Below the pieces are notes generated by a model, which worked only from the letters and a program-made list of their open reading frames with translations, made no database searches and had not been told where the DNA came from. Both the position numbers and the translations under genes were made by a program. From a virus (Duplodnaviria; Heunggongvirae; Uroviricota; Caudoviricetes), in the IMG/VR virus record IMGVR_UViG_2529292905_000015: DNA of 28,103 nt; one strand, given 5' to 3'. This document shows positions 2,371 to 13,145 of the stretch, piece by piece. Every line of letters begins with the position of its first letter. Position 1 is the first letter of the stretch.

Positions 2371-2811
2371 ATGAAAAAACTAACCTTTGAAATTCGATCT
2401 CCAGCACATCAGCAAAACGCTATTCACGCAGTACAGCAAATCCTTCCAGACCCAACCAAACCAATCGTAGTAACCATTCAGGAACGCAACCGCAGCTTAG
2501 ACCAAAACAGGAAGCTATGGGCCTGCTTAGGTGACGTCTCTCGTCAGGTTGAATGGCATGGTCGCTGGCTGGATGCAGAAAGCTGGAAGTGTGTGTTTAC
2601 CGCAGCATTAAAGCAGCAGGATGTTGTTCCTAACCTTGCCGGGAATGGCTTTGTGGTAATAGGCCAGTCAACCAGCAGGATGCGTGTAAGCGAATTTGCG
2701 GAGCTATTAGAGCTTATACAGGCATTCGGTACAGAGCGTGGCGTTAAGTGGTCAGACGAAGCGCGACTGGCTCTCGAATGGAAAGCGCGATGGGGAGACA
2801 GGGCGGCATGA
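2371..2811 (+). CDS. ninB: NinB (Orf family recombination protein)
   Basis: [56 protein letters not shown]... is near-identical to lambda NinB; ATG at 2371 preceded by GGGAGAGGGAAG; stop overlaps the next start (ATGA). Confidence 0.9.
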
Positions 2812-2990
2812 GACGACAGCGACGAAGTTTCACCGACATCATCTGCGAAAACTGCAAATACCTTCCAACGAAACGCTCCAGAAATAAACGCAAGCCAATC
2901 CCAAAAGAATCTGACGTAAAAACCTTCAACTACACGGCTCACCTGTGGGATATCCGGTGGCTAAGACATTGTGCGAGGAAAACAAGGTGA
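2808..2990 (+). CDS. ninE: NinE-like small protein (60 aa)
   Basis: [51 protein letters not shown] matches remembered lambda NinE; start overlaps the ninB stop. Confidence 0.75.
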
Positions 2991-3157
2991 TTGACCAAAA
3001 TCGAAGTTACGAACAAGAAAGCGTCGAGCGAGCTTTAACGTGCGCTAACTGCGGTCAGAAGCTGCATGTGCTGGAAGTTCACGTGTGTGAGCACTGCTGC
3101 GCAGAGCTGATGAGCGATTCGAATAGCTCGATGCACGAGGAAGAAGATGATGGCTAA
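2945..3157 (+). CDS. ninF: NinF-like small Cys-rich protein; start uncertain (GTG at 2945 or GTG near 2987)
   Basis: C-terminal part [45 protein letters not shown] matches remembered lambda NinF; the first codon of the track ORF is GTG. Confidence 0.7.
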
Positions 3158-3770
3158 ACCAGCGCGAAGACGATGTAAAAACGATGAATGTCGGGAATGG
3201 TTTCACCCTGCATTCGCTAATCAGTGGTGGTGCTCTCCAGAGTGTGGAACCAAGATAGCACTCGAACGACGAAGCAAAGAACGCGAAAAAGCGGAAAAGG
3301 CAGAAAAGGCAGCAGAGAAGAAACGACGACGAGAGGAGCAGAAACAGAAAGATAAACTTAAGATTCAAAAACTCGCCTTAAAGCCCCGCAATTACTGGAT
3401 TAAACAAGCCCAACAAGCCGTAAACGCCTTCATCAGAGAAAGAGACCGCGACTTACCATGTATCTCGTGCGGAACGCTCACGTCTGCTCAGTGGGATGCC
3501 GGACATTACCGGACAACTGCTGCGGCACCTCAACTCCGATTTGATGAACGCAATATTCACAAGCAATGCGTGGTGTGCAACCAGCACAAAAGCGGAAATC
3601 TCGTTCCGTATCGCGTCGAACTGATTAGCCGCATCGGGCAGGAAGCAGTAGAGGAAATCGAATCAAACCATAACCGCTATCGCTGGACTGTCGAAGAGTG
3701 CAGGGCCATCAAGGCGGAGTATCAACAGAAACTTAAAAAACTGCGAAACAGCAGAAGTGAGGTTGCATGA
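3147..3770 (+). CDS. ninG: NinG (Rap-like recombination protein)
   Basis: [42 protein letters not shown]... near-identical to lambda NinG; start overlaps the ninF end. Confidence 0.9.
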
Positions 3771-4432
3771 ATATCTACGAAAGAATTGATGGCAGCAAAT
3801 ACCGAAATATTTGGGTAGTTGGCGATCTGCACGGATGCTACACGAACCTGATGAAAAAACTGGAGACGATAGGATTCGACACCAAAAAAGACCTGCTTAT
3901 CTCGGTGGGCGATTTGGTTGATCGCGGTACAGAGAACGTAGAATGCCTGGAATTAATCACATTCCCCTGGTTCAGAGCTGTACGTGGAAACCATGAGCAA
4001 ATGATGATTGATGGCTTATCAGAGCGTGGAAACGTCAATCACTGGCTGCTTAATGGCGGTGGCTGGTTCTTTAATCTCGATTACGACAAAGAAATTCTGG
4101 CTAAAGCTCTTGCCCATAAAGCAGATGAACTTCCGTTAATCATCGAACTGGTGAGTAAAGGAAAAAAATATGTCATCTGCCACGCCGATTATCCTTGTGA
4201 TAAATACGAGTTTGGAAAGCCAGTTGATCATCAGCAGGTAATCTGGAACCGCGAACGAATCAGCAACTCACAAGACGGGATCGTGAAAGAAATCAAAGGC
4301 GCGGACACGTTCATCTTTGGTCATACGCCAGCAGTGAAACCACTCAAATTTGCCAACCAGATGTATATCGATACTGGCGCAGTGTTCTGCGGAAACCTCA
4401 CATTGATTCAGGTACAGGGAGAAGGCGCATGA
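3767..4432 (+). CDS. ninI: NinI-type serine/threonine protein phosphatase (PPP family)
   Basis: GDLHGCY and GNHE metallophosphatase motifs; near-identical to remembered lambda NinI (221 aa); ATGA overlap with ninG; GAGG Shine-Dalgarno upstream. ninC, ninD and ninH are absent. Confidence 0.9.
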
Positions 4433-4560
4433 GACTCGAAAGCGTAGCTAAATTTCATTCGCCAAAAAGCCCGATGATGAGCGACTCACTACTGGCCACA
4501 GTTTATTGGTTTTCGTAACTGAGTCATTTTATTATTTTATTGCAACTTTTAATCTTTTAT

Positions 4561-4610
4561 AGTGCGAAATAAATGGAGCTGGCATTCATTTCGCACTTTA
4601 TGTTTTTGTT
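4561..4610 (+). terminator. Putative intrinsic terminator: perfect 10-bp inverted repeat (AGTGCGAAAT / ATTTCGCACT) with a 17-nt loop, followed by TTATGTTTTTGTT
   Basis: Read directly from the sequence; lies between ninI and the convergent minus-strand cargo gene. The T-rich tail is on the plus strand only. Confidence 0.45.
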
Positions 4611-4643
4611 GGACTTATGTTATTTTGATTGAATTCAATTCAG

Positions 4644-5603
4644 TTAAAAAAAGAAGGTGATTGCTCCATTTATAAATGAATAGTCATCCCCTGTCTTGAA
4701 TTCTGATGTTACTTTATTAAATGCTAGTGTGAAGGCTACAGGTGCATACCCAATTGTTGCGCCAACTTGATATTCATCAACAGTTTTGTTTAGCGATACT
4801 GTTGTTTGTTTCGTCTGTATTGTTTTTCCTTCGAGAGTATAGTTGCGATTGACATCTCGTCTTTCCATACCTGCAAAAATCTTGTATTTGAATCCGCTTG
4901 TATCGGACATATGCATTAAACCACGGGGAGCCAGCAGACCAAAGCCATTATCCGAATTGAAGGTTTTATCATTACCAATGGCAATGGTTGCGCCATATGC
5001 TACATATTGAAATAAGTTTCCAGTAACAGCAGAAACTTCAGGGTATAATCCAACATTAGCACCTAAAATATCCATACTTGGTGTCATGGATAGCATCCCT
5101 TTTACAGTATAACCGTAGCGATTCTCTATTTGATCATCCCATGCATGATATTTTTCTGCCCCAATAATCTCATGAGCTTTATTTTGTACTTTCTGACCGC
5201 CTGCGTCGGGGCCAACAACACCTATGTCAGTACCTAATCGATAGCGAATCCAGTCATTCGCAAGGGAGTTCCATTCAATACCAGTGTGAGTGTATGCACT
5301 AAAAGCTCTGTCTCCAGTTACAGCTGTGTTGTGTCTTTTATTACTGCCTGATGGAGAGTAAATATCTTGCGCAATATGGAGAGATAATTGGCTCGAGTCT
5401 GAGATATCGTGGCTATATCCCAGAAATAAGCCTTGTGAGTAATCATCTCTGTTTTCATGTTTATTGCCATAAATATCATTAAGTATTGGTTGAAACTTCC
5501 CTGCATCATCATTTGCTAATGATAATGCAAGGCTGTTCGCGATAGCTGAACACGTGGTAAATGACAGAGCAATAAAGACGCCAGCGATGACACTTTTTTT
5601 CAT
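4644..5603 (-). CDS. Outer-membrane beta-barrel protein, cargo gene; tentatively LpxR-like lipid A 3'-O-deacylase
   Basis: 319 aa; N-terminal signal peptide MKKSVIAGVFIALSFTTCSA; alternating amphipathic segments; C-terminal aromatic FFF typical of a beta-barrel signature; AT-rich with atypical codon usage; antisense to the flanking phage genes. Size and position recall the prophage-borne LpxR of EHEC, but this is from memory, not a sequence match. Confidence 0.7.
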   Translation of the reverse strand: MKKSVIAGVFIALSFTTCSAIANSLALSLANDDAGKFQPILNDIYGNKHENRDDYSQGLFLGYSHDISDSSQLSLHIAQDIYSPSGSNKRHNTAVTGDRAFSAYTHTGIEWNSLANDWIRYRLGTDIGVVGPDAGGQKVQNKAHEIIGAEKYHAWDDQIENRYGYTVKGMLSMTPSMDILGANVGLYPEVSAVTGNLFQYVAYGATIAIGNDKTFNSDNGFGLLAPRGLMHMSDTSGFKYKIFAGMERRDVNRNYTLEGKTIQTKQTTVSLNKTVDEYQVGATIGYAPVAFTLAFNKVTSEFKTGDDYSFINGAITFFF

Positions 5604-5993
5604 ATGTTATTGTCTTCCTTTTTTTGAATGGTGCGCGTATTTTACATACATGAGTTTGTAATACAAGGTGCGTAATCAATATGATGTTTTATAATTGCGT
5701 GAGACAATTGATTTATTCGTTTTTTATTGCGGTTTTTATTATCTTTTAATGTAACGGTGTTTTTATTAAGTGTGTTTGCGTGGTGTTTTATGTTTTTTAT
5801 AATTTTTATTTTATTAAATTTAAATGCATTAGTAATGGCTATTCTATATAGCAATATAAGAACTGTTACAAAAAAAGGGGGGGCAATTACAGGTAGTTAT
5901 GGATGATGAGTGAAACAGATATTGGAGAACCGGGGAATGAATGATGTCTGAGTCTTATATATCAGAACTCCTTCGCTGTCGCTGGGGGCTCCT
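5604..5993. promoter_or_regulatory. Strongly AT-rich divergent intergenic region with phased T-tracts (GTTTTTATT repeats); probable promoter region for the cargo gene and Q, and a plausible curved-DNA / H-NS target
   Basis: Repeated T5-6 tracts spaced roughly 10-12 bp apart between about 5690 and 5820; sits between divergent genes. H-NS binding is inferred from composition only. Confidence 0.4.
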
Positions 5994-6767
5994 GTGCTTA
6001 TGTCGTTTCCCCGATTCGGTTTTGAACGATTACCGAATGTTGAAGAATTATGCCAAAATATAGAAAGGATTTACTGCATGAATACCCAATATTTACAGTA
6101 TGTTCGTGAGCAACTTATGGCAGCTACTGCTGACTTGAACGGAGCAACGAAAGGCCAGCTCGAAGCCTGGCAGGAGCATGCACAATTTGATACTGGTACA
6201 TACAAACGAAAGAAGCCGCGCATTCTGGATGTGGTAACTGGCAAGATGATTACGCTGGATAATACGCCGACTTCCGGTAAGCAGTCGTACGCAAAAGGTT
6301 CATCCATTGCTTTGGTCAGCCCGGTTGAATTCTCAACCTCTTCATGGCGCCGCGCGGTTTTGTCTCTCGATGAACATCAGAAAGCATGGTTGCTTTGGTG
6401 TTACAGCGAAAGCGTTCGATGGGGGCATCAGGTCACCATAACGCAATGGGCATGGAGCGAGTTTAAAGATTTGTTAAGTAACAGAAAAATTGCAGGTAAG
6501 ACACTGGATCGCCTGAAGACGTTAATCTGGCTGGCTGCACAGGATGTGAAGAGCGAACTTGCAGGGCGTGAGGCCTATGAATACCAGACACTGGCATCAT
6601 TGGTGGGAGTGACAACAAAAAACTGGTCCGAGACATTTACTGAACGCTGGGTTGCAATGAAGCACATTTTTCTACAGCTTGATAGTGATGCTTTATTGCT
6701 TGTGACGAGAACACGTTCAAAACAAAAGGCAGCATTTTTACAGCAAAATATTGCAAAACTGGATTAA
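5994..6767 (+). CDS. Late-gene antiterminator Q, long form; probable true start at ATG 6078 (MNTQYLQYVREQL...)
   Basis: Sits between the nin region and the PR'-tR' unit and lysis genes; resembles the roughly 250-aa Q proteins of E. coli cryptic prophages (from memory); the track ORF begins on GTG at 5994; ATG 6078 has an AGGA motif about 8 nt upstream. Confidence 0.6.
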   Translation: MLMSFPRFGFERLPNVEELCQNIERIYCMNTQYLQYVREQLMAATADLNGATKGQLEAWQEHAQFDTGTYKRKKPRILDVVTGKMITLDNTPTSGKQSYAKGSSIALVSPVEFSTSSWRRAVLSLDEHQKAWLLWCYSESVRWGHQVTITQWAWSEFKDLLSNRKIAGKTLDRLKTLIWLAAQDVKSELAGREAYEYQTLASLVGVTTKNWSETFTERWVAMKHIFLQLDSDALLLVTRTRSKQKAAFLQQNIAKLD

Positions 6768-6779
6768 AAGCCATATACT
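6751..6779 (+). promoter_or_regulatory. PR'-like late promoter: -35 TTGCAA (6751-6756), 17-bp spacer, -10 TATACT (6774-6779); the Q-utilisation site is expected to overlap
   Basis: Sigma-70 consensus-like hexamers with ideal spacing, immediately after the Q stop and about 35 nt upstream of a strong terminator; a -10-like TATGTT lies in the initially transcribed region, as at lambdoid pause sites. Confidence 0.5.
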
Positions 6780-6814
6780 TCATGCAAATTTGGTATGTTG
6801 TAAAAAATGTATAA

Positions 6815-6839
6815 ACCCGCTGCCGAGTGGGTTTTTTTT
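6815..6839 (+). terminator. tR'-like intrinsic terminator: 7-bp stem ACCCGCU / AGUGGGU (one G-U pair), GCCG loop, then eight T
   Basis: Hairpin plus T8 read directly from the sequence, about 35 nt downstream of the PR'-like -10. Confidence 0.7.
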
Positions 6840-6936
6840 ATGCCCTGAGTTGTACTTGTACGGTAAACATGCTGGCTGCTATGTAATAGAGTTTTTTTAG
6901 CCTGTAACCTCTTGACGGCATTGAATTGCTTTTGTT

Positions 6937-7695
6937 ATGAGTTGTAAGCCAATGTTATCATCTTGTATTGGGGTGGTTATGAAGGATGGTGCGCTGCTCA
7001 GGAGTTCTTCACTTTTTATTGCCTACATGGGATGCCTTGGATGGGGGAGTGCTTATTTCTATGGATGGGGTACTTCTTTTTACTACGGCTTCCCATGGTG
7101 GATTGTAGGTGCAGGTGTTGATGATGTTGCCAGAAGTTTATTTTTTGCAGTTATCGTCATTGCTATATTTCTTATCGGTTGGGGTATTGGTGTTGTATTC
7201 TTTTTCGCAGTGAAAAGAAAACATTCTATGCAAGAGCTAAATGTATTTCGCCTTTATTTTGCTGTGGAATTATTGTTTGTGCCGGCAATTATTGAGTTTT
7301 CTATATTGAGACAGAAGATTCAGGTACCTCTTTTGCTACTGTCAGCAGCGATTGCGCTGGCGGTTACAATTTCGATAAGATCTTATGGGCGATTTTTATC
7401 GGTATCATGCTTCTATGATAAGCCATTTATAAAAAAACATTTTTTTGAGATTGTGATGATTGCTTTTGTGGCATATTTCTGGCTTTTTTCATTTCTGACA
7501 GGATATTACAAACCACAGTTTAAGAAAGAATATGAAATGATTAATTATAATGATGGTTGGTATTATGTTCTTGCTCGTTATGATAATTGTCTGGTTTTGT
7601 CTACTTCTTTCAATGCAGGTAGTAAAAGGTTTGTCATTTATCAATCAGCACAAGATAAGAATCTTCAGGTTGATATTGTAAGGACCAGAATTTAA
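6937..7695 (+). CDS. Polytopic inner-membrane protein of unknown function (moron between Q and the lysis cassette); start ambiguous (ATG 6937, 6952 or 6979)
   Basis: About 5 predicted hydrophobic helices, an aromatic/Gly-rich N-terminal segment (GWGSAYFYGWGTSFYYGFPWW) and a roughly 60-aa hydrophilic C-terminal tail; AT-rich; possible own promoter TTGACG (6912-6917) with TATGAG about 18 bp downstream. Confidence 0.65.
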   Translation: MSCKPMLSSCIGVVMKDGALLRSSSLFIAYMGCLGWGSAYFYGWGTSFYYGFPWWIVGAGVDDVARSLFFAVIVIAIFLIGWGIGVVFFFAVKRKHSMQELNVFRLYFAVELLFVPAIIEFSILRQKIQVPLLLLSAAIALAVTISIRSYGRFLSVSCFYDKPFIKKHFFEIVMIAFVAYFWLFSFLTGYYKPQFKKEYEMINYNDGWYYVLARYDNCLVLSTSFNAGSKRFVIYQSAQDKNLQVDIVRTRI

Positions 7696-8125
7696 TTGGC
7701 TGCATAAATAATATTTTAAGTTGCAAGTTGGCTATTCGTAGGAATAGAACCTTAGGCATGCTGAATGCGTTTCCTGAACATTGTTTTATAAACTGTGTCT
7801 GCTTGCTGTTGTGATCCTGCTTTTAGTGATGGTGATGATGGATTTCACCAGCAGGATAATGTTGGTACTGACTGATGGCGCTCTGGTCTGCGGCATTGTG
7901 GTATTGCTGTGGCCGATGATGAAAGAACAGAATGAATAATTCTTGACTTTTTTGTTTACTGTTTATTAAAAAATCAACCGCATGGTGAATCCTCCTTGGA
8001 GGGGCTAAATGATCGAGTTTTAAGGGCACGTAGCGAGTTCTGTTTGATCATTGCAGAACTTAGCGGGAGGCGCCATGCGTACATCACTAATGTTATTTCC
8101 TTCTATCATTTTCCTTGTGAGTTCT

Positions 8126-8152
8126 GGCTGCGCATGGCGCGGCCTTTTTTTT
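8126..8152 (+). terminator. Strong intrinsic terminator: GGCUGCGC-AUG-GCGCGGCC hairpin followed by eight T
   Basis: 8-bp GC-rich stem with one G-U pair and a T8 tract, read directly; lies downstream of the moron and upstream of the lysis cassette. Confidence 0.7.
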
Positions 8153-8328
8153 ATGACCTGCCACTGGCAGATGGTCATCCTGTGATTTGATTCCGGTTCC
8201 GGCTTTTTAACTCTGTTCCTGTACACGGGAGAAATTCTATGTCGATTAATCGTTATGATATTGGTTACAAGAAGTACCACGTATTGTGTTGAGATAGAAA
8301 GCATGGTGCCAGAGGTAAATGCAGCAGC

Positions 8329-8380
8329 ATAATAAAAAAGAGCCAGCGCAGAAGAGAACGGGTAAAAGAGTCTGCGCTGG
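8329..8380 (-). terminator. Minus-strand terminator-like element: perfect 10-bp inverted repeat (CCAGCGCAGA / TCTGCGCTGG) with an 18-nt loop, followed on the minus strand by CTCTTTTTTATT
   Basis: Read directly; the U-rich tail exists only on the minus strand; a consensus-like minus-strand promoter lies about 55-110 bp upstream of it (see findings). Confidence 0.5.
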
Positions 8381-8560
8381 CGTGGGGATATTCCCCGTGG
8401 AGAAATGATATGTAACACACATCGGGAACCTTTCTATATAAACATTATCATTATTGTCAATCATAACAGTCAGGTATTATGACGTTTATGCATCAGGGCC
8501 ATCAGGAATTAACTGGTGGCTTTTTATTGTTGTCAGCTTCCGGATAACGGGAGACGGGGT

Positions 8561-8776
8561 ATGTACCAGATGGAAAAAATAACAACAGGTGTGTCATACA
8601 CCACGTCAGCGGTGGGGACGGGATACTGGCTACTGCAGTTGCTGGACAAAGTCTCCCCATCCCAGTGGGTGGCAATAGGCGTATTGGGTAGCTTGGTGTT
8701 TGGCTTGCTGACGTATCTGACAAACCTTTATTTCAAGATTAAAGAAGATAAGCGTAAGGCTGCGAGAGGTGAATAA
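8561..8776 (+). CDS. S: Class II holin, phage 21 S-type pinholin, with a dual-start motif (MYQMEK)
   Basis: [66 protein letters not shown] closely resembles remembered S21; two transmembrane segments; stop overlaps the endolysin start. Confidence 0.85.
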
Positions 8777-9273
8777 TGTCGCCATCATTACGCAAGGCTG
8801 TTGCTGCTGCTATTGGTGGTGGGGCTGTTGCCATAGCGTCTGTGCTCATCACTGGTCCGAGTGGTGACGATGGCCTGGAAGGTGTCAGCTACATACCATA
8901 CGAAGATATCGTTGGCGTATGGACTGTATGTCACGGACACACCGGAAAAGACATCATGCCCGGTAAAACGTATACCGAAGCAGAATGCAAAGCCCTCCTG
9001 AATAAAGACCTTGCCACGGTCGCCAGACAAATTAACCCGTACATCAAAGTCGATATACCGGAAACAACGCGCGGCGCTCTTTACTCGTTCGTTTACAACG
9101 TGGGCGCTGGTAATTTCAGAACATCGACGCTTCTTCGCAAAATAAACCAGGGTGATATCAAAGGCGCATGTGATCAGCTACGGCGCTGGACATACGCTGG
9201 CGGTAAGCAATGGAAAGGGCTGATGACTCGCCGCGAGATTGAGCGTGAAGTCTGTTTGTGGGGGCAACAATGA
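8776..9273 (+). CDS. R: SAR (signal-anchor-release) endolysin, lysozyme-type, phage 21 R-like
   Basis: N-terminal Gly/Ala-rich weakly hydrophobic segment ([20 protein letters not shown]) followed by a lysozyme-like domain; immediately follows the pinholin. Confidence 0.85.
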
Positions 9274-9737
9274 GCAGAGTAACCGCGATTATCTCCGCTC
9301 TGGTTATCTGCATCATCGTCTGCCTGTCATGGGCGGTTAATCATTACCGTGATAACGCCATCGCCTATAAAGAACAGCGTGATAAAAAAGTCAGTGAGCT
9401 GAAGCAGGCGACCGCCACCATTACTGACATGCAGCAGCGCCAGCGTGCTGCTGATGCACTCGATGCTAAATACACGAAGGAGTTAGCTGATGCGAAAGCT
9501 AAAAATGATGCTCTTCGGCGCAAGCTTGATAATGGTGGTCGGGTGTTCGTCAAAGGAAAATGCCCTGTGCCATCCTCAGACGAAACCTCCAGCGCCTCCG
9601 GCATGGGCAATGATGCCACCGTCGAACTCTCTCCAGTTGCTGGACGAAACGTTCTCGGTATCCGGGACGGAATTATCCGCGACCAAACAGCACTGAGAAC
9701 GCTTCAGGAATACATCAGGACGCAATGCCTTCGATGA
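9270..9737 (+). CDS. Rz: Rz i-spanin (inner-membrane spanin subunit)
   Basis: N-terminal transmembrane segment ([20 protein letters not shown]) then a coiled-coil-like charged periplasmic domain; ATGA overlap with the endolysin stop; contains the embedded Rz1 frame. Confidence 0.8.
9490..9696 (+). CDS. Rz1: Rz1 o-spanin (outer-membrane lipoprotein), embedded in the +1 frame of Rz
   Basis: Lipobox ...IMVVGCSS and a proline-rich mature region ([13 protein letters not shown]); N-terminus MRKLKMML resembles lambda Rz1; lies entirely within Rz. Confidence 0.75.
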
Positions 9738-9910
9738 TAGCGATAATTTTACTCATCATCCTTCACATCTGGCTCTGTAGACAGGGTGGTGCTCACTTCT
9801 GGAGTGAATCATGGTTAAACATCTCATTGCTGATGCTTGATATTGAGCATCTGGCGCGCGGTAAGGGGCTGCGTTGAGATAAGAGCCAGTCATTAAAAAT
9901 ACCTGGATTT

Positions 9911-9936
9911 AGCCTCGCATTCGCGGGGCTTTTTTA
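9911..9936 (+). terminator. Intrinsic terminator-like hairpin AGCCUCGC-AUUC-GCGGGGCU followed by T5
   Basis: Read directly, about 170 bp downstream of Rz. Confidence 0.5.
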
Positions 9937-10354
9937 TTGCCATTACAAAAGCCACTCCCTACAGAGTGGCTTTGATAATGGCTTATACCCTACACGGGAT
10001 AACTTAACTGATATCCCTTTTAACGGATAAAGGTATTCAAGCCTGACACATCATGCGCTGTATCGTCGCTGTATTCCCGCATTAACCATGACCGTAGCCC
10101 GACGGGGAACTCCTTCTGCGCGAGTGTGCGGGAATAATCAAAAACGATGCACACCGGGTTTTTACCGCGCTAATGATTCGCGGGTTTGTCCCTCATGCTC
10201 GCCAGTCCTGTGCGGGGGTGGAAGAAACAGGACACTCACACAGATTCTTGTGGGTCGATGCTATTCCTTTCTGGATTATCCCGATGCCATTCATGCAAAG
10301 GCTGTATCAGACGTTCGTCATGGCTTTCAGGCTGACGGCTCCTCCCGGTGGGGT

Positions 10355-10551
10355 GGCCTGCCACGGGGCGGGAGCGTCGCGGAAAAAGGCTAGTTTTTGC
10401 ATTTTTATCGGCCACCATCATCTTTGCATCTTATTGATTATTAATGGTTATTTGTTTTTTGTATGTCGAATTGAGTGTTTTTTGTTCGACATCGAACGCG
10501 TTTTCTTAAAGTTGTTCGCACGATGCATGTTTAAAGCTCTCCGGAGGAAAT
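10355..10551. other. Probable cos region (cosN-like GGGGCGGGAGCGTCGCGG at 10365-10382, then an AT-rich cosB-like segment with short palindromes)
   Basis: GC-rich motif resembling the remembered lambda left end GGGCGGCGACCTCGCGGG; it lies about 187 bp upstream of the terminase small subunit start (lambda cosN to Nu1 is about 190 bp); downstream palindromes TGTCGAA...TTCGACA and TTCGACATCGAA. Confidence 0.45.
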
Positions 10552-11043
10552 ATGGATCATGAGTTGAAAAACCTGGTGCTGAATATTAATCAACTGGCGG
10601 CTTTATCTGGTCTGCACCGCCAGACTGTCGTGGCAAGACTGAAAAACATTCGTCCCGCTGGTGGACATGACAAACTCAAGCTATACCGGTTGACCGATAT
10701 TCTGACTGAATTTATGGGGTTACCACCGCCGGTTGCTGAGGGCGAAATGGATCCACATGAACGCAAAGCCTGGTATCAGTCTGAACGTGAGCGTCTTAAG
10801 TTCGAACAGGAAACGGCACAACTCATTCCGGCCAGTGATGTCAGACGGGAGTTTGCCATCTGGGCAAAAGCGGTCGTGCAGGTGCTGGAGACATTACCGG
10901 ATATTCTGGAACGTGACTGTGGTCTGCAGCCTGCCGCTGTGAGCCGTGTTCAGTCCATTATTGATGATCTGCGCGATCAGATAGCCCTGCGGGTGACCGA
11001 AGCAGGTGCGGATGATGAGGAGGAATTACAGCAGGAGGAGTAA
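10552..11043 (+). CDS. Terminase small subunit (Nu1-like function)
   Basis: 163 aa with a predicted N-terminal helix-turn-helix (LNINQLAALSGLHRQTVVARLKN) and an acidic C-terminus; GGAGGAAA Shine-Dalgarno; TAATG overlap with the large subunit; positioned directly after cos. Confidence 0.7.
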   Translation: MDHELKNLVLNINQLAALSGLHRQTVVARLKNIRPAGGHDKLKLYRLTDILTEFMGLPPPVAEGEMDPHERKAWYQSERERLKFEQETAQLIPASDVRREFAIWAKAVVQVLETLPDILERDCGLQPAAVSRVQSIIDDLRDQIALRVTEAGADDEEELQQEE

Positions 11044-13145
11044 TGCTGAATCAGGAAACCGCAAAGGCAGCACGAACCGATTCAGGTTATATCCTTCGCG
11101 CACCGAGACGAATGCGGGTTGCTGATGCCGTTGCTCAGTATATGCGGGTGCCCATGGGGGCCGGGAACTCAGTCCCGTGGGATCCGCTGGTGGCACCGTA
11201 TGTTATTGAGCCGATGAACTGCCTGGCCTCGCGTGAATACGACGCAGTGATATTTGTTGGCCCGGCACGAACCGGCAAGACTATCGGCCTGATTGACGGC
11301 TGGGTGATTTACAACGTGATTTGCGATCCTGCGGATATGCTGATCATTCAGATGACGGAGGAAAAAGCCCGCGAACACTCCAAAAAACGACTCGCCAGAA
11401 CGTTTCGCGTCAGCCCGGAAGTGGTCAGTCGCCTGAGTCCGAACAAAAATGACAACAACGTTTATGACAGAACATTCCTTGCTGGCAACTACCTGAAAAT
11501 CGGCTGGCCGTCAGTCAATATCATGTCCTCATCAGATTATAAATGCGTGGCGCTGACGGATTATGACCGTTTTCCGGAAGATATTGATGGCGAGGGGGAT
11601 GCCTTCTCTCTTGCCTCAAAACGTACCACCACATTTATGTCCAGTGGTATGACGCTGGTGGAGAGTTCCCCCGGCAGGGATGTGAAGGATGTGAAATGGC
11701 GACGGACTTCACCGCATGAGGCTCCACCAACCACGGGGATACTGTCGCTCTATAACCGTGGCGATCGCCGTCGCCGGTACTGGCCCTGTCCACACTGTGG
11801 TGAGTATTTTCAGCCCTGCGGCGATGTGGTTGCTGGTTTCCGTGATATTGCCGATCCCGTGCTGGCAAGTGAGGCGGCTTATATTCAGTGTCCTTCCTGT
11901 TCAGGACGGATTATGCCTGAACAAAAACGTGAGCTGAACGGACGTGGGGTCTGGTTGCGGGATGGTGAATCCATCAATGCGGATGGTAGTCGTTATGGTG
12001 ATCCCCGACGCTCACGTATTGCGTCATTCTGGATGGAGGGTCCGGCAGCTGCTTACCAGACACTCTCGCAACTCGTTTACAAACTGCTTACTGCAGAACA
12101 GGAATACGAGACAACCGGAAGTGAAGAAACACTCAAGACGGTTATCAATACCGACTGGGGATTACCTTATCTTCCCCGCGCCAGCATGGAGCAACGAAAA
12201 AGTGAACTGCTTGAGCAGCGGGCAGAGCCAGTTCCTTCCAGCAGTGTGCCGGATGGCGTTAATTTCCTTGTGGCGACAGTGGATGTGCAGGCGGGACGTC
12301 ATCGCCGTTTTGTGGTTCAGGTAACGGGCTATGGCAGCCGTGGCGAACGCTGGATTATTGATCGTTACAACATCACGCAGTCATTGCGCGGTGACAGCGA
12401 CGGTGAGAGCCAGCGAATTGATCCGGCCAGCTATCCGGAAGACTGGGATGTCCTGCTGACGGATGTTTTTCATAAAAGCTGGCCGCTGGCCTCCGATCCT
12501 TCTCAACAAATGCGACTGATGGCAATGGCGGTGGACTCCGGCGGTGAAGACGGGGTCACTGATAATGCCTATAAATTCTGGCGTCGTTGCCGTCGTGATG
12601 GCCTTGGTAAACGTATTTACCTGTTTAAGGGCGACAGCATCCGGCGCGCAAAACTGATCACCCGTACATTCCCTGATAACACCGGACGAACGGGCCGACG
12701 GGCGCAGGCCGCAGGTGATGTGCCGCTCTGGCTTCTTCAGACGGATGCACTGAAAGACCGGGTGAATAACGCGTTATGGCGTGACTCTCCAGGTCCCGGC
12801 TATGTGCATTTCCCTGACTGGCTGGGGAGCTGGTTTTACGACGAACTGACGTATGAAGAGCGGAGTAGTGACGGGAAATGGAGTAAGCCGGGTCGCGGTG
12901 CCAACGAAGCTTTTGACCTGATGGTGTATGCCGAGGCTCTGGTCATTCTGCATGGATACGAAAAGATCCGCTGGCCGGATGCACCGGGGTGGGCGAGCCG
13001 GGAAACCTGGCTGGAGAGTGTCCCGGACAGTACCGAACCGTCACCCTCACCGGAACCGGTATCCACGCCTGTTAAAAAACAAAAACGGAAGAAAACAGTA
13101 ACTGACGATGTTAACCCCTGGCTGACTTCCGGAGGATGGTTATGA
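11043..13145 (+). CDS. Terminase large subunit, lambda gpA family
   Basis: 700 aa; Walker A-like motif (VGPARTGKT); overall organisation resembling lambda gpA; follows the small subunit. Confidence 0.9.
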   Translation: MLNQETAKAARTDSGYILRAPRRMRVADAVAQYMRVPMGAGNSVPWDPLVAPYVIEPMNCLASREYDAVIFVGPARTGKTIGLIDGWVIYNVICDPADMLIIQMTEEKAREHSKKRLARTFRVSPEVVSRLSPNKNDNNVYDRTFLAGNYLKIGWPSVNIMSSSDYKCVALTDYDRFPEDIDGEGDAFSLASKRTTTFMSSGMTLVESSPGRDVKDVKWRRTSPHEAPPTTGILSLYNRGDRRRRYWPCPHCGEYFQPCGDVVAGFRDIADPVLASEAAYIQCPSCSGRIMPEQKRELNGRGVWLRDGESINADGSRYGDPRRSRIASFWMEGPAAAYQTLSQLVYKLLTAEQEYETTGSEETLKTVINTDWGLPYLPRASMEQRKSELLEQRAEPVPSSSVPDGVNFLVATVDVQAGRHRRFVVQVTGYGSRGERWIIDRYNITQSLRGDSDGESQRIDPASYPEDWDVLLTDVFHKSWPLASDPSQQMRLMAMAVDSGGEDGVTDNAYKFWRRCRRDGLGKRIYLFKGDSIRRAKLITRTFPDNTGRTGRRAQAAGDVPLWLLQTDALKDRVNNALWRDSPGPGYVHFPDWLGSWFYDELTYEERSSDGKWSKPGRGANEAFDLMVYAEALVILHGYEKIRWPDAPGWASRETWLESVPDSTEPSPSPEPVSTPVKKQKRKKTVTDDVNPWLTSGGWL

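Follow-up and report, generated by a model that had tools for sequence, protein, structure and literature searches.

Hfq-bound RNAs have been mapped in Escherichia coli Sakai (Tree et al. 2014, Mol Cell 55:199; PMC4104026), and convergent small RNA (sRNA) genes fill the moron slot downstream of PR' in prophages Sp3, Sp4, Sp5, Sp9, Sp10, Sp11, Sp15, and Sp17 (PMC4104026). AgvB and AsxR (RF02702, RF02703) are convergent, Hfq-bound RNAs from this slot; they are 51-60 nt long, have a conserved 3' domain of ~42 nt, and are sponges for GcvB and FnrS. PasA and PasC of enteropathogenic E. coli (EPEC) E2348/69 occupy a slot that runs from a moron/esterase gene to a class II holin gene. Esr41 (EcOnc14) depends on Hfq and represses chuA, cirA, and bfr by pairing with their ribosome-binding sites (PMC5286369). 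Esr41 also affects fliC and LEE, the enterocyte effacement locus. A 2026 preprint by Zhu, Shabalina and Storz relates PasD to STnc100 and reports matches to the Esr41 model near PasD genes. The subject of this work is a minus-strand promoter-hairpin-terminator unit in IMG/VR record IMGVR_UViG_2529292905_000015, a Caudoviricetes sequence of 28,103 nt. The whole stretch is referred to as the window, coordinates are those of the window unless another record is named, and the unit was examined by reading both strands. The unit lies upstream of a class II holin gene and is the gene for the sRNA EcOnc32, catalogued in 2014. The arrangement of PasD and an Esr41-model match described in the preprint is the arrangement found in the window.

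The minus-strand unit is the EcOnc32 gene

A megablast search placed positions 7900-8800 at 100% identity in many O157:H7 genomes. Positions 7900-8600 are 100% identical to Sakai prophage Sp3 (NC_002695.2 901146-901846), and the window and Sp3 are 99.87% identical over 2781-11754. Sakai positions were converted to window positions by subtracting 893,246, and the conversion was cross-checked against the read sequences of the RNase E crosslinking, ligation, and sequencing of hybrids (CLASH) study. Table S2 of PMC4104026 lists EcOnc32 in Sp3 on the minus strand with a peak at 901574-901662 and a flagged Rho-independent terminator. The RNA was recovered in 5 of 5 data sets of Hfq UV crosslinking and analysis of cDNA (CRAC) with an area under the curve of 6.5e7, and its size on Northern blots was ~112 nt (Table S2, PMC4104026). 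The Hfq-CRAC peak maps to 8328-8416 on the minus strand of the window. The published Northern probe, ATATTCCCCGTGGAGAAATGATATGTAACACACAT, has a single exact match at 8388-8422 on the plus strand, which makes it complementary to the predicted minus-strand RNA. The unit and EcOnc32 share locus, sequence, and strand, and nothing differs between them.

These data show that the unit is the EcOnc32 gene. The sequence-only reading of this DNA had proposed an Hfq-bound sRNA in the late region of a lambdoid prophage of enterohemorrhagic E. coli (EHEC), and the Hfq-CRAC data, the Northern band, and the RNase E-CLASH hybrids bear it out for this exact sequence. The call was correct and is not a discovery; the RNA had been described as a plausible new member of the group, and it is already in Tree et al. 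2014. The published entry consists only of coordinates, the size estimate, and the terminator flag; its 'Homologues' and hfq-deletion columns are empty, and it gives no ends, structure, or function. Expression, Hfq cross-linking, and RNase E-associated RNA-RNA hybrids are already published for EcOnc32. The additions made here are modest: paralogy with Esr41, definition of the seed, a link to entC drawn from published data, a spurious coding sequence, and a possible Fur box.

EcOnc32 is probably a trans-acting, Hfq-dependent sRNA of ~90-105 nt that occludes ribosome-binding sites in the manner of Esr41. The gene is located in an Sp3/CP-933K-type lambdoid prophage of E. coli O157:H7, where it is flanked by the PasD/EcOnc13 terminator and the holin gene. 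In the proposed mechanism, it would be transcribed leftward from its own sigma-70 promoter, antisense to late transcription. The seed ACAUAUCAUUUCUCCAC would pair with the Shine-Dalgarno/start-codon region of target mRNAs with Hfq as the chaperone, and the pairing would block translation and recruit RNase E. The candidate targets are entC and ECs1655. We infer translational repression as the regulatory outcome from the action of Esr41 on chuA, cirA, and bfr.

Promoter, fold, and ends of the RNA

The -35 hexamer, the 16-nt spacer, the -10 hexamer, the small hairpin, the inverted repeat, and the T-tract all lie on the minus strand at the positions given by the sequence-only reading (Table 1). 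The perfect inverted repeat CCAGCGCAGA (8380-8371)/TCTGCGCTGG (8352-8343) becomes an 11-bp stem when the G8381-C8342 pair is counted, and the tail CUCUUUUUUAUU extends to 8329. The 92-nt RNA from 8423 to 8332 folds into three hairpins with a predicted energy of -35.1 kcal/mol compared to -15.3 ± 2.7 kcal/mol for dinucleotide shuffles (n = 200). The z-score of this fold is -7.4, and none of the 200 shuffles was as stable. The promoter hexamers, the seed, and the terminator are retained in diverged variants of the gene. The distinct variants are designated A (the window copy), A2, B, C, C2, D, and E. A promoter-hairpin-terminator unit of this kind is far beyond chance.

The block TTTATATA around the -10 hexamer is kept in the alignment of variants A-D. 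The hexamer of variant B fits a -10 element better than that of the window copy at equal spacing, which supports the promoter (P1) chosen by the sequence-only reading. A consensus promoter/terminator scan reported neither P1 nor the terminator. The scan misses the unit because the -10 hexamer does not end in T and the loop of the terminator is longer than the scanner's 8-nt limit. It is therefore silent either way, and the fold z-scores and conservation were used as support instead. A promoter scan gave a candidate second promoter, P2, that would yield an RNA of ~104 nt, nearer to the published Northern size. The P2 -10 hexamer is TATAAT in variant C, and P2 is destroyed in variant B. A tRNA scan found no tRNA.

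Alignment of EcOnc32 with Esr41, with the promoters in register, predicts G8423 as the 5' end. The 3' end is placed at ~8334, after the sixth U, where one single-read CLASH hybrid ends (...GGCUCUUUUUU). The sequence-only reading had estimated an RNA of ~95 nt. The alignment and CLASH ends (8423 to ~8334) refine this to ~90 nt, compared to the ~112 nt published from the Northern blot. In the 5' hairpin, the fourth nucleotide changes from G to A in variants, and a G.U pair becomes A-U. The sequence-only reading had also named covariation across homologous prophages as a check; an alignment of 7 sequences fits the fold, with 92% of the cells paired. Two terminator stem pairs are changed on both sides, and both changes are in variant C (C-G to U-A and A-U to U-A).

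Relationship of EcOnc32 to Esr41

A permissive Rfam scan of 7600-8800 (1.2 kb) detected Esr41 (RF02676) at 8421-8332 on the minus strand. The match covers model positions 1-74 of 74 with a score of 32.3 bits and E = 6e-4. A covariance model built from EcOnc32-type variants only (A4, R1) was then compared to Esr41, and it matches Esr41 end to end (positions 1-94 of 94). This reciprocal match scores 32.6 bits with an E-value of about 8e-6 in 53 kb. In the window, the EcOnc32 model matches 8423-8331 and nothing else. Of 2000 dinucleotide shuffles, one equalled the local alignment score of EcOnc32 and Esr41 (z = 4.6), and the -35 TTGACAA and the start-site GATG are in register in the alignment of the two genes. 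These comparisons indicate that EcOnc32 is a diverged paralogue of Esr41, a relationship that is new here.

The two RNAs share the same order of elements: a 5' hairpin, a single-stranded U/C-rich seed, a GGGG/CCCC hairpin, and a terminator. An independent fold of EcOnc32 gives these same four elements. The seeds are homologous (CAUUUUCUCCAUGGGG against CAUUUCUCCACGGGG), the second hairpin of Esr41 (GGGG-UAU-UCCC) is in the position equivalent to GGGGA-AUA-UCCCC of EcOnc32, and the terminator arms are similar (CGCCRGC...GCUGGCG). Hfq binding and pairing with ribosome-binding sites, the latter predicted for EcOnc32, are common to both. The differences lie in the remaining parts. The 5' hairpin of Esr41 has 6 bp and another sequence than the 7-bp hairpin of EcOnc32, at a matching position. 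The terminator loop is 18 nt in EcOnc32 compared to 8 nt in Esr41. The EcOnc32 seed is extended 5' by CAUAUCA, and this extension would account for its different best targets, which are entC and ECs1655 compared to bfr and cirA for Esr41. EcOnc32 is located in a lambdoid late region, whereas Esr41 is located in SpLE1.

Pairing of the seed with entC and ECs1655

Table EV7 of the RNase E-CLASH study (PMC5286369) contains four EcOnc32 hybrids. The hybrid with entC (ECs0632) has 4 unique reads in both orientations and a false discovery rate (FDR) of 5e-6, the hybrid with ECs1655 has 2 reads (FDR 4e-4), and the remaining two are single reads (PMC5286369). ECs0632 was confirmed as entC, the first gene of enterobactin synthesis, and the entC half of the hybrid begins at the Fur box in the intergenic DNA between fepB and entC and continues through the entC start codon. 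ECs1655 is a gene of Sakai prophage Sp8 that encodes a 60-aa KGG-repeat (YciG-like stress) protein (1001-1183 of the extracted locus, L005). The sRNA half of both multi-read hybrids starts with ACAUAUCAUUUCUCCACGGGG, at ~8413-8415 of the window.

Seed-only duplexes were used to compare the targets, and full-length duplex prediction was discarded because it over-extends into structured regions. The EcOnc32 seed forms a duplex with positions -16 to +8 of entC with a predicted dG of -23.2 kcal/mol, a value equalled by 0.3% of shuffled seeds. With ECs1655, 14 contiguous Watson-Crick pairs form between CAUAUCAUUUCUCC and GGAGAAAUGAUAUG (-21.7 kcal/mol). Each of the two predicted duplexes spans the AUG together with the Shine-Dalgarno sequence. 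Pairing of the Esr41 seed with entC and ECs1655 is weak (-12.4 and -11.3 kcal/mol, respectively). The chuA fragment, a published Esr41 target, gave similar predicted values with the EcOnc32 and Esr41 seeds (-18.8 and -19.6 kcal/mol, respectively), and bfr gave -12.0 kcal/mol with both. None of the four EcOnc32 hybrids involves chuA, cirA, or bfr. The differing duplex strengths suggest that the EcOnc32 and Esr41 target sets are probably overlapping but distinct.

Several points weigh against EcOnc32 as a trans-acting, Esr41-like repressor. Half of the seed lies within the 3' arm of the predicted 5' hairpin, so pairing would need hairpin opening or an RNA processed at its 5' end. Both the Hfq peak and the CLASH halves begin in the loop of this hairpin, which may reflect 5' processing or trimming by RNase. 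Few CLASH reads were recovered (4 and 2). The ~90 nt predicted from the P1/Esr41-aligned start disagrees with the ~112 nt of the Northern blot. The Esr41 score of 32.3 bits is far under the Rfam gathering cut-off of 102; genuine Esr41 on SpLE1 (L004 1148-1221) scores 108.6 bits, and the cut-off is tuned to near-identical copies. The covariation agrees with the fold and is statistically thin, with 2 compensatory pairs from one lineage. A full-text literature search found EcOnc32 and ECs0817 named in no main text, and the name EcOnc32 occurs only in supplementary tables of the literature searched.

Table 1. Features of the EcOnc32 region and their positions in the window
Feature	Position	Strand	Basis or remark
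PasD/EcOnc13 sRNA (STnc100-like), convergent partner	7980-8152	+	Ends at terminator 8126-8144 + T8
ECs_0817 (WP_012578864.1), hypothetical protein, 132 aa, GTG start	8020-8418	-	RefSeq and Sakai annotation
72-aa open reading frame (ORF)	8246-8464	-	ORF list
Conserved module: sRNA gene + class II holin gene (8561-8776)	8268-8776	+	Variants A, B, and C aligned, flanks included
EcOnc32 sRNA, predicted primary transcript of ~90 nt	8334-8423	-	Hfq-CRAC peak, Northern probe, CLASH read end, Esr41 alignment, fold z-score
Intrinsic terminator, 11-bp stem GCCAGCGCAGA/UCUGCGCUGGC, 18-nt loop, then UCUUUUUU at 8341-8334	8342-8381	-	Read directly; fold
Hairpin 2, GGGGA-AUA-UCCCC	8384-8396	-	Read directly; fold
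Seed region ACAUAUCAUUUCUCCAC	8397-8413	-	Complementary to Shine-Dalgarno + start codon; invariant in variants A-C
5' hairpin GAUGUGU-GUU-ACAUAUC, 7 bp	8407-8423	-	Fold; 3' arm belongs to seed
-10 hexamer TATAGA, 16-nt spacer to -35	8433-8438	-	Read directly; TATAAA in variant B
Fur-box-like AATAATGATAATGTTTATA, 15/19 vs GATAATGATAATCATTATC	8437-8455		Overlaps -35/-10 spacer of EcOnc32 promoter
Candidate second promoter P2: CTGACT, 18 nt, GATAAT	8444-8473	-	Promoter scan
-35 hexamer TTGACA (P1)	8455-8460	-	Read directly; invariant in variants A-D; TTGACAA in Esr41
Terminator-like hairpin GCCATCAG-GAATTAA-CTGGTGGC, then TTTTTATTG	8495-8530	+	~40 nt upstream of holin start 8561

Conservation of the seed and of the holin module

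The seed region is the best-conserved part across the EcOnc32 variants, an observation that is new here. The sequence-only reading had set the conservation of the promoter and hairpin against that of the flanking DNA. Seed plus hairpin 2 (8382-8423) is 93-98% identical among variants A, B, and C compared to 70-81% for the flank downstream of the RNA, and the promoter is also above the flank at 76-89%. The terminator is 60-83% identical. Pattern searches of IMG/VR found no scaffold with another seed and no seed on another scaffold. The scaffold-only and seed-only patterns recover the identical 71 loci, and the seed-only pattern adds matches in 2 metagenomic contigs. Seed and scaffold are always together in the 71 loci, which argues that they are not shuffled within the EcOnc32 family.

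Variants A, B, and C are unrelated upstream of ~8268. Their homology runs from this point into the holin gene, which makes the sRNA gene part of a lysis-cassette module. This linkage bears on the idea that the main role of the unit is in cis, with the convergent, fully complementary antisense RNA and its promoter damping or timing the Q-antiterminated late transcript on its way to the holin and lysis genes. Such an effect could arise through transcriptional interference or through RNase III cutting the duplex, and it is possible since the late transcript has to cross 8155-8560 before it arrives at the holin gene. The sRNA gene is well placed for it: it occupies the other strand, at a distance of 140-230 nt upstream from the holin ATG (8561) and downstream of the terminator at 8126-8144. 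It always travels with the holin module in the block from ~8268, and AsxR, AgvB, PasA, and PasC hold an equivalent slot and orientation elsewhere, which could mean a shared cis function. Pure antisense action would not explain why conservation peaks in the seed and the flanks and terminator loop drift. Esr41, the paralogue, acts from SpLE1, which is not a lambdoid late region, and a cis role leaves the Hfq binding and the trans hybrids unexplained. We consider a main role in cis unlikely; it is compatible with the trans model and does not exclude it.

Two side observations concern the DNA between the sRNA gene and the holin gene and the holin start itself. The plus-strand terminator-like hairpin (Table 1) is in a stretch that is 93-96% conserved across the variants, and it may act as a leader structure or as a second late terminator. 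The class II holin gene begins ATG TAC CAG ATG (M-Y-Q-M; 8561-8572, plus strand), with two in-frame starts three codons apart. This double start is reminiscent of the dual-start holin/antiholin of lambda S.

Distribution and decay of EcOnc32 copies

The 141-nt EcOnc32 gene is present in 602 of 5426 complete E. coli genomes, mostly as a single copy. It is also found in 71 IMG/VR contigs and in one deposited phage, the inducible relative Escherichia phage Evi, whose copy is 98.6% identical. A scan of species-representative genomes gave only Esr41-type copies in E. coli and Shigella, together with two chance matches in unrelated metagenome-assembled genomes. Variants D (L084 1501-1637) and E (L083 1496-1575) converge with Shiga toxin 2 B-subunit genes and lie directly downstream of them. 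In variant E, beside stx2i, the promoter is lost and hairpin 2 is degraded, and this copy looks like a remnant. Variant D has a substitution in the seed.

Such copies raise the question of whether EcOnc32 is expressed but neutral, a decaying Esr41-like copy carried along with the lysis cassette. The degraded, promoter-less copy beside stx2i and the seed substitution of variant D agree with this idea, as do the low CLASH counts and a prophage that is cryptic and disrupted by insertion sequences (IS) in many strains. Three findings speak against it. The Hfq-CRAC signal, found in all five data sets, is among the larger ones in the part of Table S2 considered (PMC4104026). Seed and promoter are conserved above the flanks in variants A-C, and the gene is at least 99% identical in 563 complete genomes of several serotypes. 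A neutral EcOnc32 is quite improbable.

The annotated reading frames

A hypothetical protein, ECs_0817, is annotated over the unit in RefSeq and in the Sakai record, and the ORF list gives a second, 72-aa frame (Table 1). This annotation is the one point in favor of a protein-coding region. ECs_0817 would cross both convergent sRNA genes and two opposed intrinsic terminators. Its stop-to-stop frame of 137 codons is cut to 62, 35, and 32 in variants A2, B, and C, respectively, by indels of 1 nt and 8 nt in the T-tract and the loop of the terminator. Conservation of the 72-aa frame is no better. The homology between variants stops at ~8268, inside ECs_0817, and the overlying ORFs have no significant Pfam match. 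A protein-coding function for either frame is almost certainly wrong, and ECs_0817 is probably an annotation artefact that has been propagated through RefSeq. The sequence-only reading had noted the ORF at 8246-8464 and dismissed it; the ORF exists, and the dismissal was right, as no frame through the unit survives in the variants.

A possible link to iron

A Fur-box-like site overlaps the EcOnc32 promoter (Table 1). A shuffled window is expected to hold 0.05 sites that match at 15 of 19 positions, and shuffles restricted to the promoter region 0.0006. A hand count gives the site 14 of 19 matches in variant C and 11 of 19 in variant B. A second 15/19 site is located at 9742-9760, close to where the lysis genes end, and may be due to chance. 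The promoter site, the candidate target entC, and the iron-related Esr41 regulon together suggest iron control, as a hypothesis only. In its full form, EcOnc32 would be a Fur-repressed, iron-responsive prophage counterpart of RyhB and Esr41 that stops enterobactin synthesis in the host by covering the entC ribosome-binding site and possibly represses haem uptake through chuA, and the RNA might in addition restrain the holin leader by antisense action. This extended proposal is doubtful. If it were true, a cryptic prophage would rewire EHEC siderophore production through entC.

The sRNA slot upstream of the holin gene

The convergent partner of EcOnc32 is PasD/EcOnc13, an assignment that is new here. 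Its 7980-8152 sequence is identical to PasD2 of EPEC E2348/69 at 168 of 172 positions, and the STnc100 model (RF02076) matches 7950-8155 of the plus strand with 37.7 bits, under its cut-off of 47. Table S2 of PMC4104026 lists EcOnc13 in Sp3 on the plus strand at 901332-901382 with a size of ~187 nt, and this peak corresponds to 8086-8136 of the window. PasD was equated with EcOnc13 by Pearl Mizrahi et al. 2021 (PMC8550237 Table S6). The printed EcOnc13 Northern probe has no match in the window at up to 3 mismatches; the printed sequence could be corrupt, or it could come from a different copy. The EcOnc13 identity therefore rests on the coordinates and the PasD homology instead. The 3' ends of PasD/EcOnc13 and EcOnc32 are ~180 nt apart, so the two RNAs do not overlap.

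PasA and PasC share the slot and orientation of EcOnc32. They also share the TTGACAA -35, the terminator arms GCCAGCG...CGCUGGCU followed by a U-tract, and a homologous downstream flank. Membership of EcOnc32 in the PasA/PasC group was rejected because the RNA bodies and seeds do not align, and PasA has been equated with EcOnc51/52, not with EcOnc32 (Pearl Mizrahi et al. 2021, PMC8550237 Table S6). As a separate observation, the slot in EPEC prophage PP2 (L086, E2348/69; record 743264-743500, minus strand) holds two tandem sRNA units. One is PasA. The second, downstream unit is PasC-like, with a TTGACA promoter-like site of its own and a terminator that reads GCCAGCG...CGCTGGC. This second terminator is where the published 236-nt 'minor' form of PasA ends.

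AgvB and AsxR resemble EcOnc32 in their convergent arrangement, Hfq binding, and moron slot downstream of PR', and variants D and E lie downstream of stx2B as AsxR does in Sp5. The sequence-only reading had alluded to such anti-sRNAs. No AgvB/AsxR match was found in 7600-8800 even at E<=10, membership in that family was rejected, and the relative found is Esr41. Rfam at gathering scores over the whole window gave only an IS3-type ALIL pseudoknot and no AgvB/AsxR. An anti-sRNA function, in which EcOnc32 would titrate a core-genome sRNA as a sponge, draws on the shared slot, orientation, and Hfq binding. The RNA differs from AgvB and AsxR in architecture, and its ~90 nt compare to their 51-60 nt. 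Among the 12 supplementary files of the CLASH study (PMC5286369), EcOnc32 appears only in the EcOnc-mRNA table, and its anti-Shine-Dalgarno seed is directed at ribosome-binding sites. A sponge function is very improbable for EcOnc32.

The occurrence of several RNAs at one position shows that the slot upstream of the holin gene hosts interchangeable sRNA bodies. EcOnc32/Esr41-type, PasA/PasC, and AgvB/AsxR bodies use this slot, framed by similar promoters and terminators.

Other features of the window

The ALIL pseudoknot (RF01497, 120.9 bits) is at 1368-1484 on the plus strand and marks the programmed-frameshift site of an IS3-family element (IS1203/IS629-like). The prophage carries this insertion in its early region. 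The window and the compared stretch of Sakai Sp3 differ upstream of ~2780.

Implications

The main value of these results is confirmation. A reader of the sequence alone found an experimentally supported sRNA gene that is still annotated as a hypothetical protein. The kinship with Esr41, the conserved anti-Shine-Dalgarno seed, entC as the candidate target with the best support, the possible Fur box, and the spurious coding sequence could seed a small study of EHEC prophage interference with host iron acquisition.

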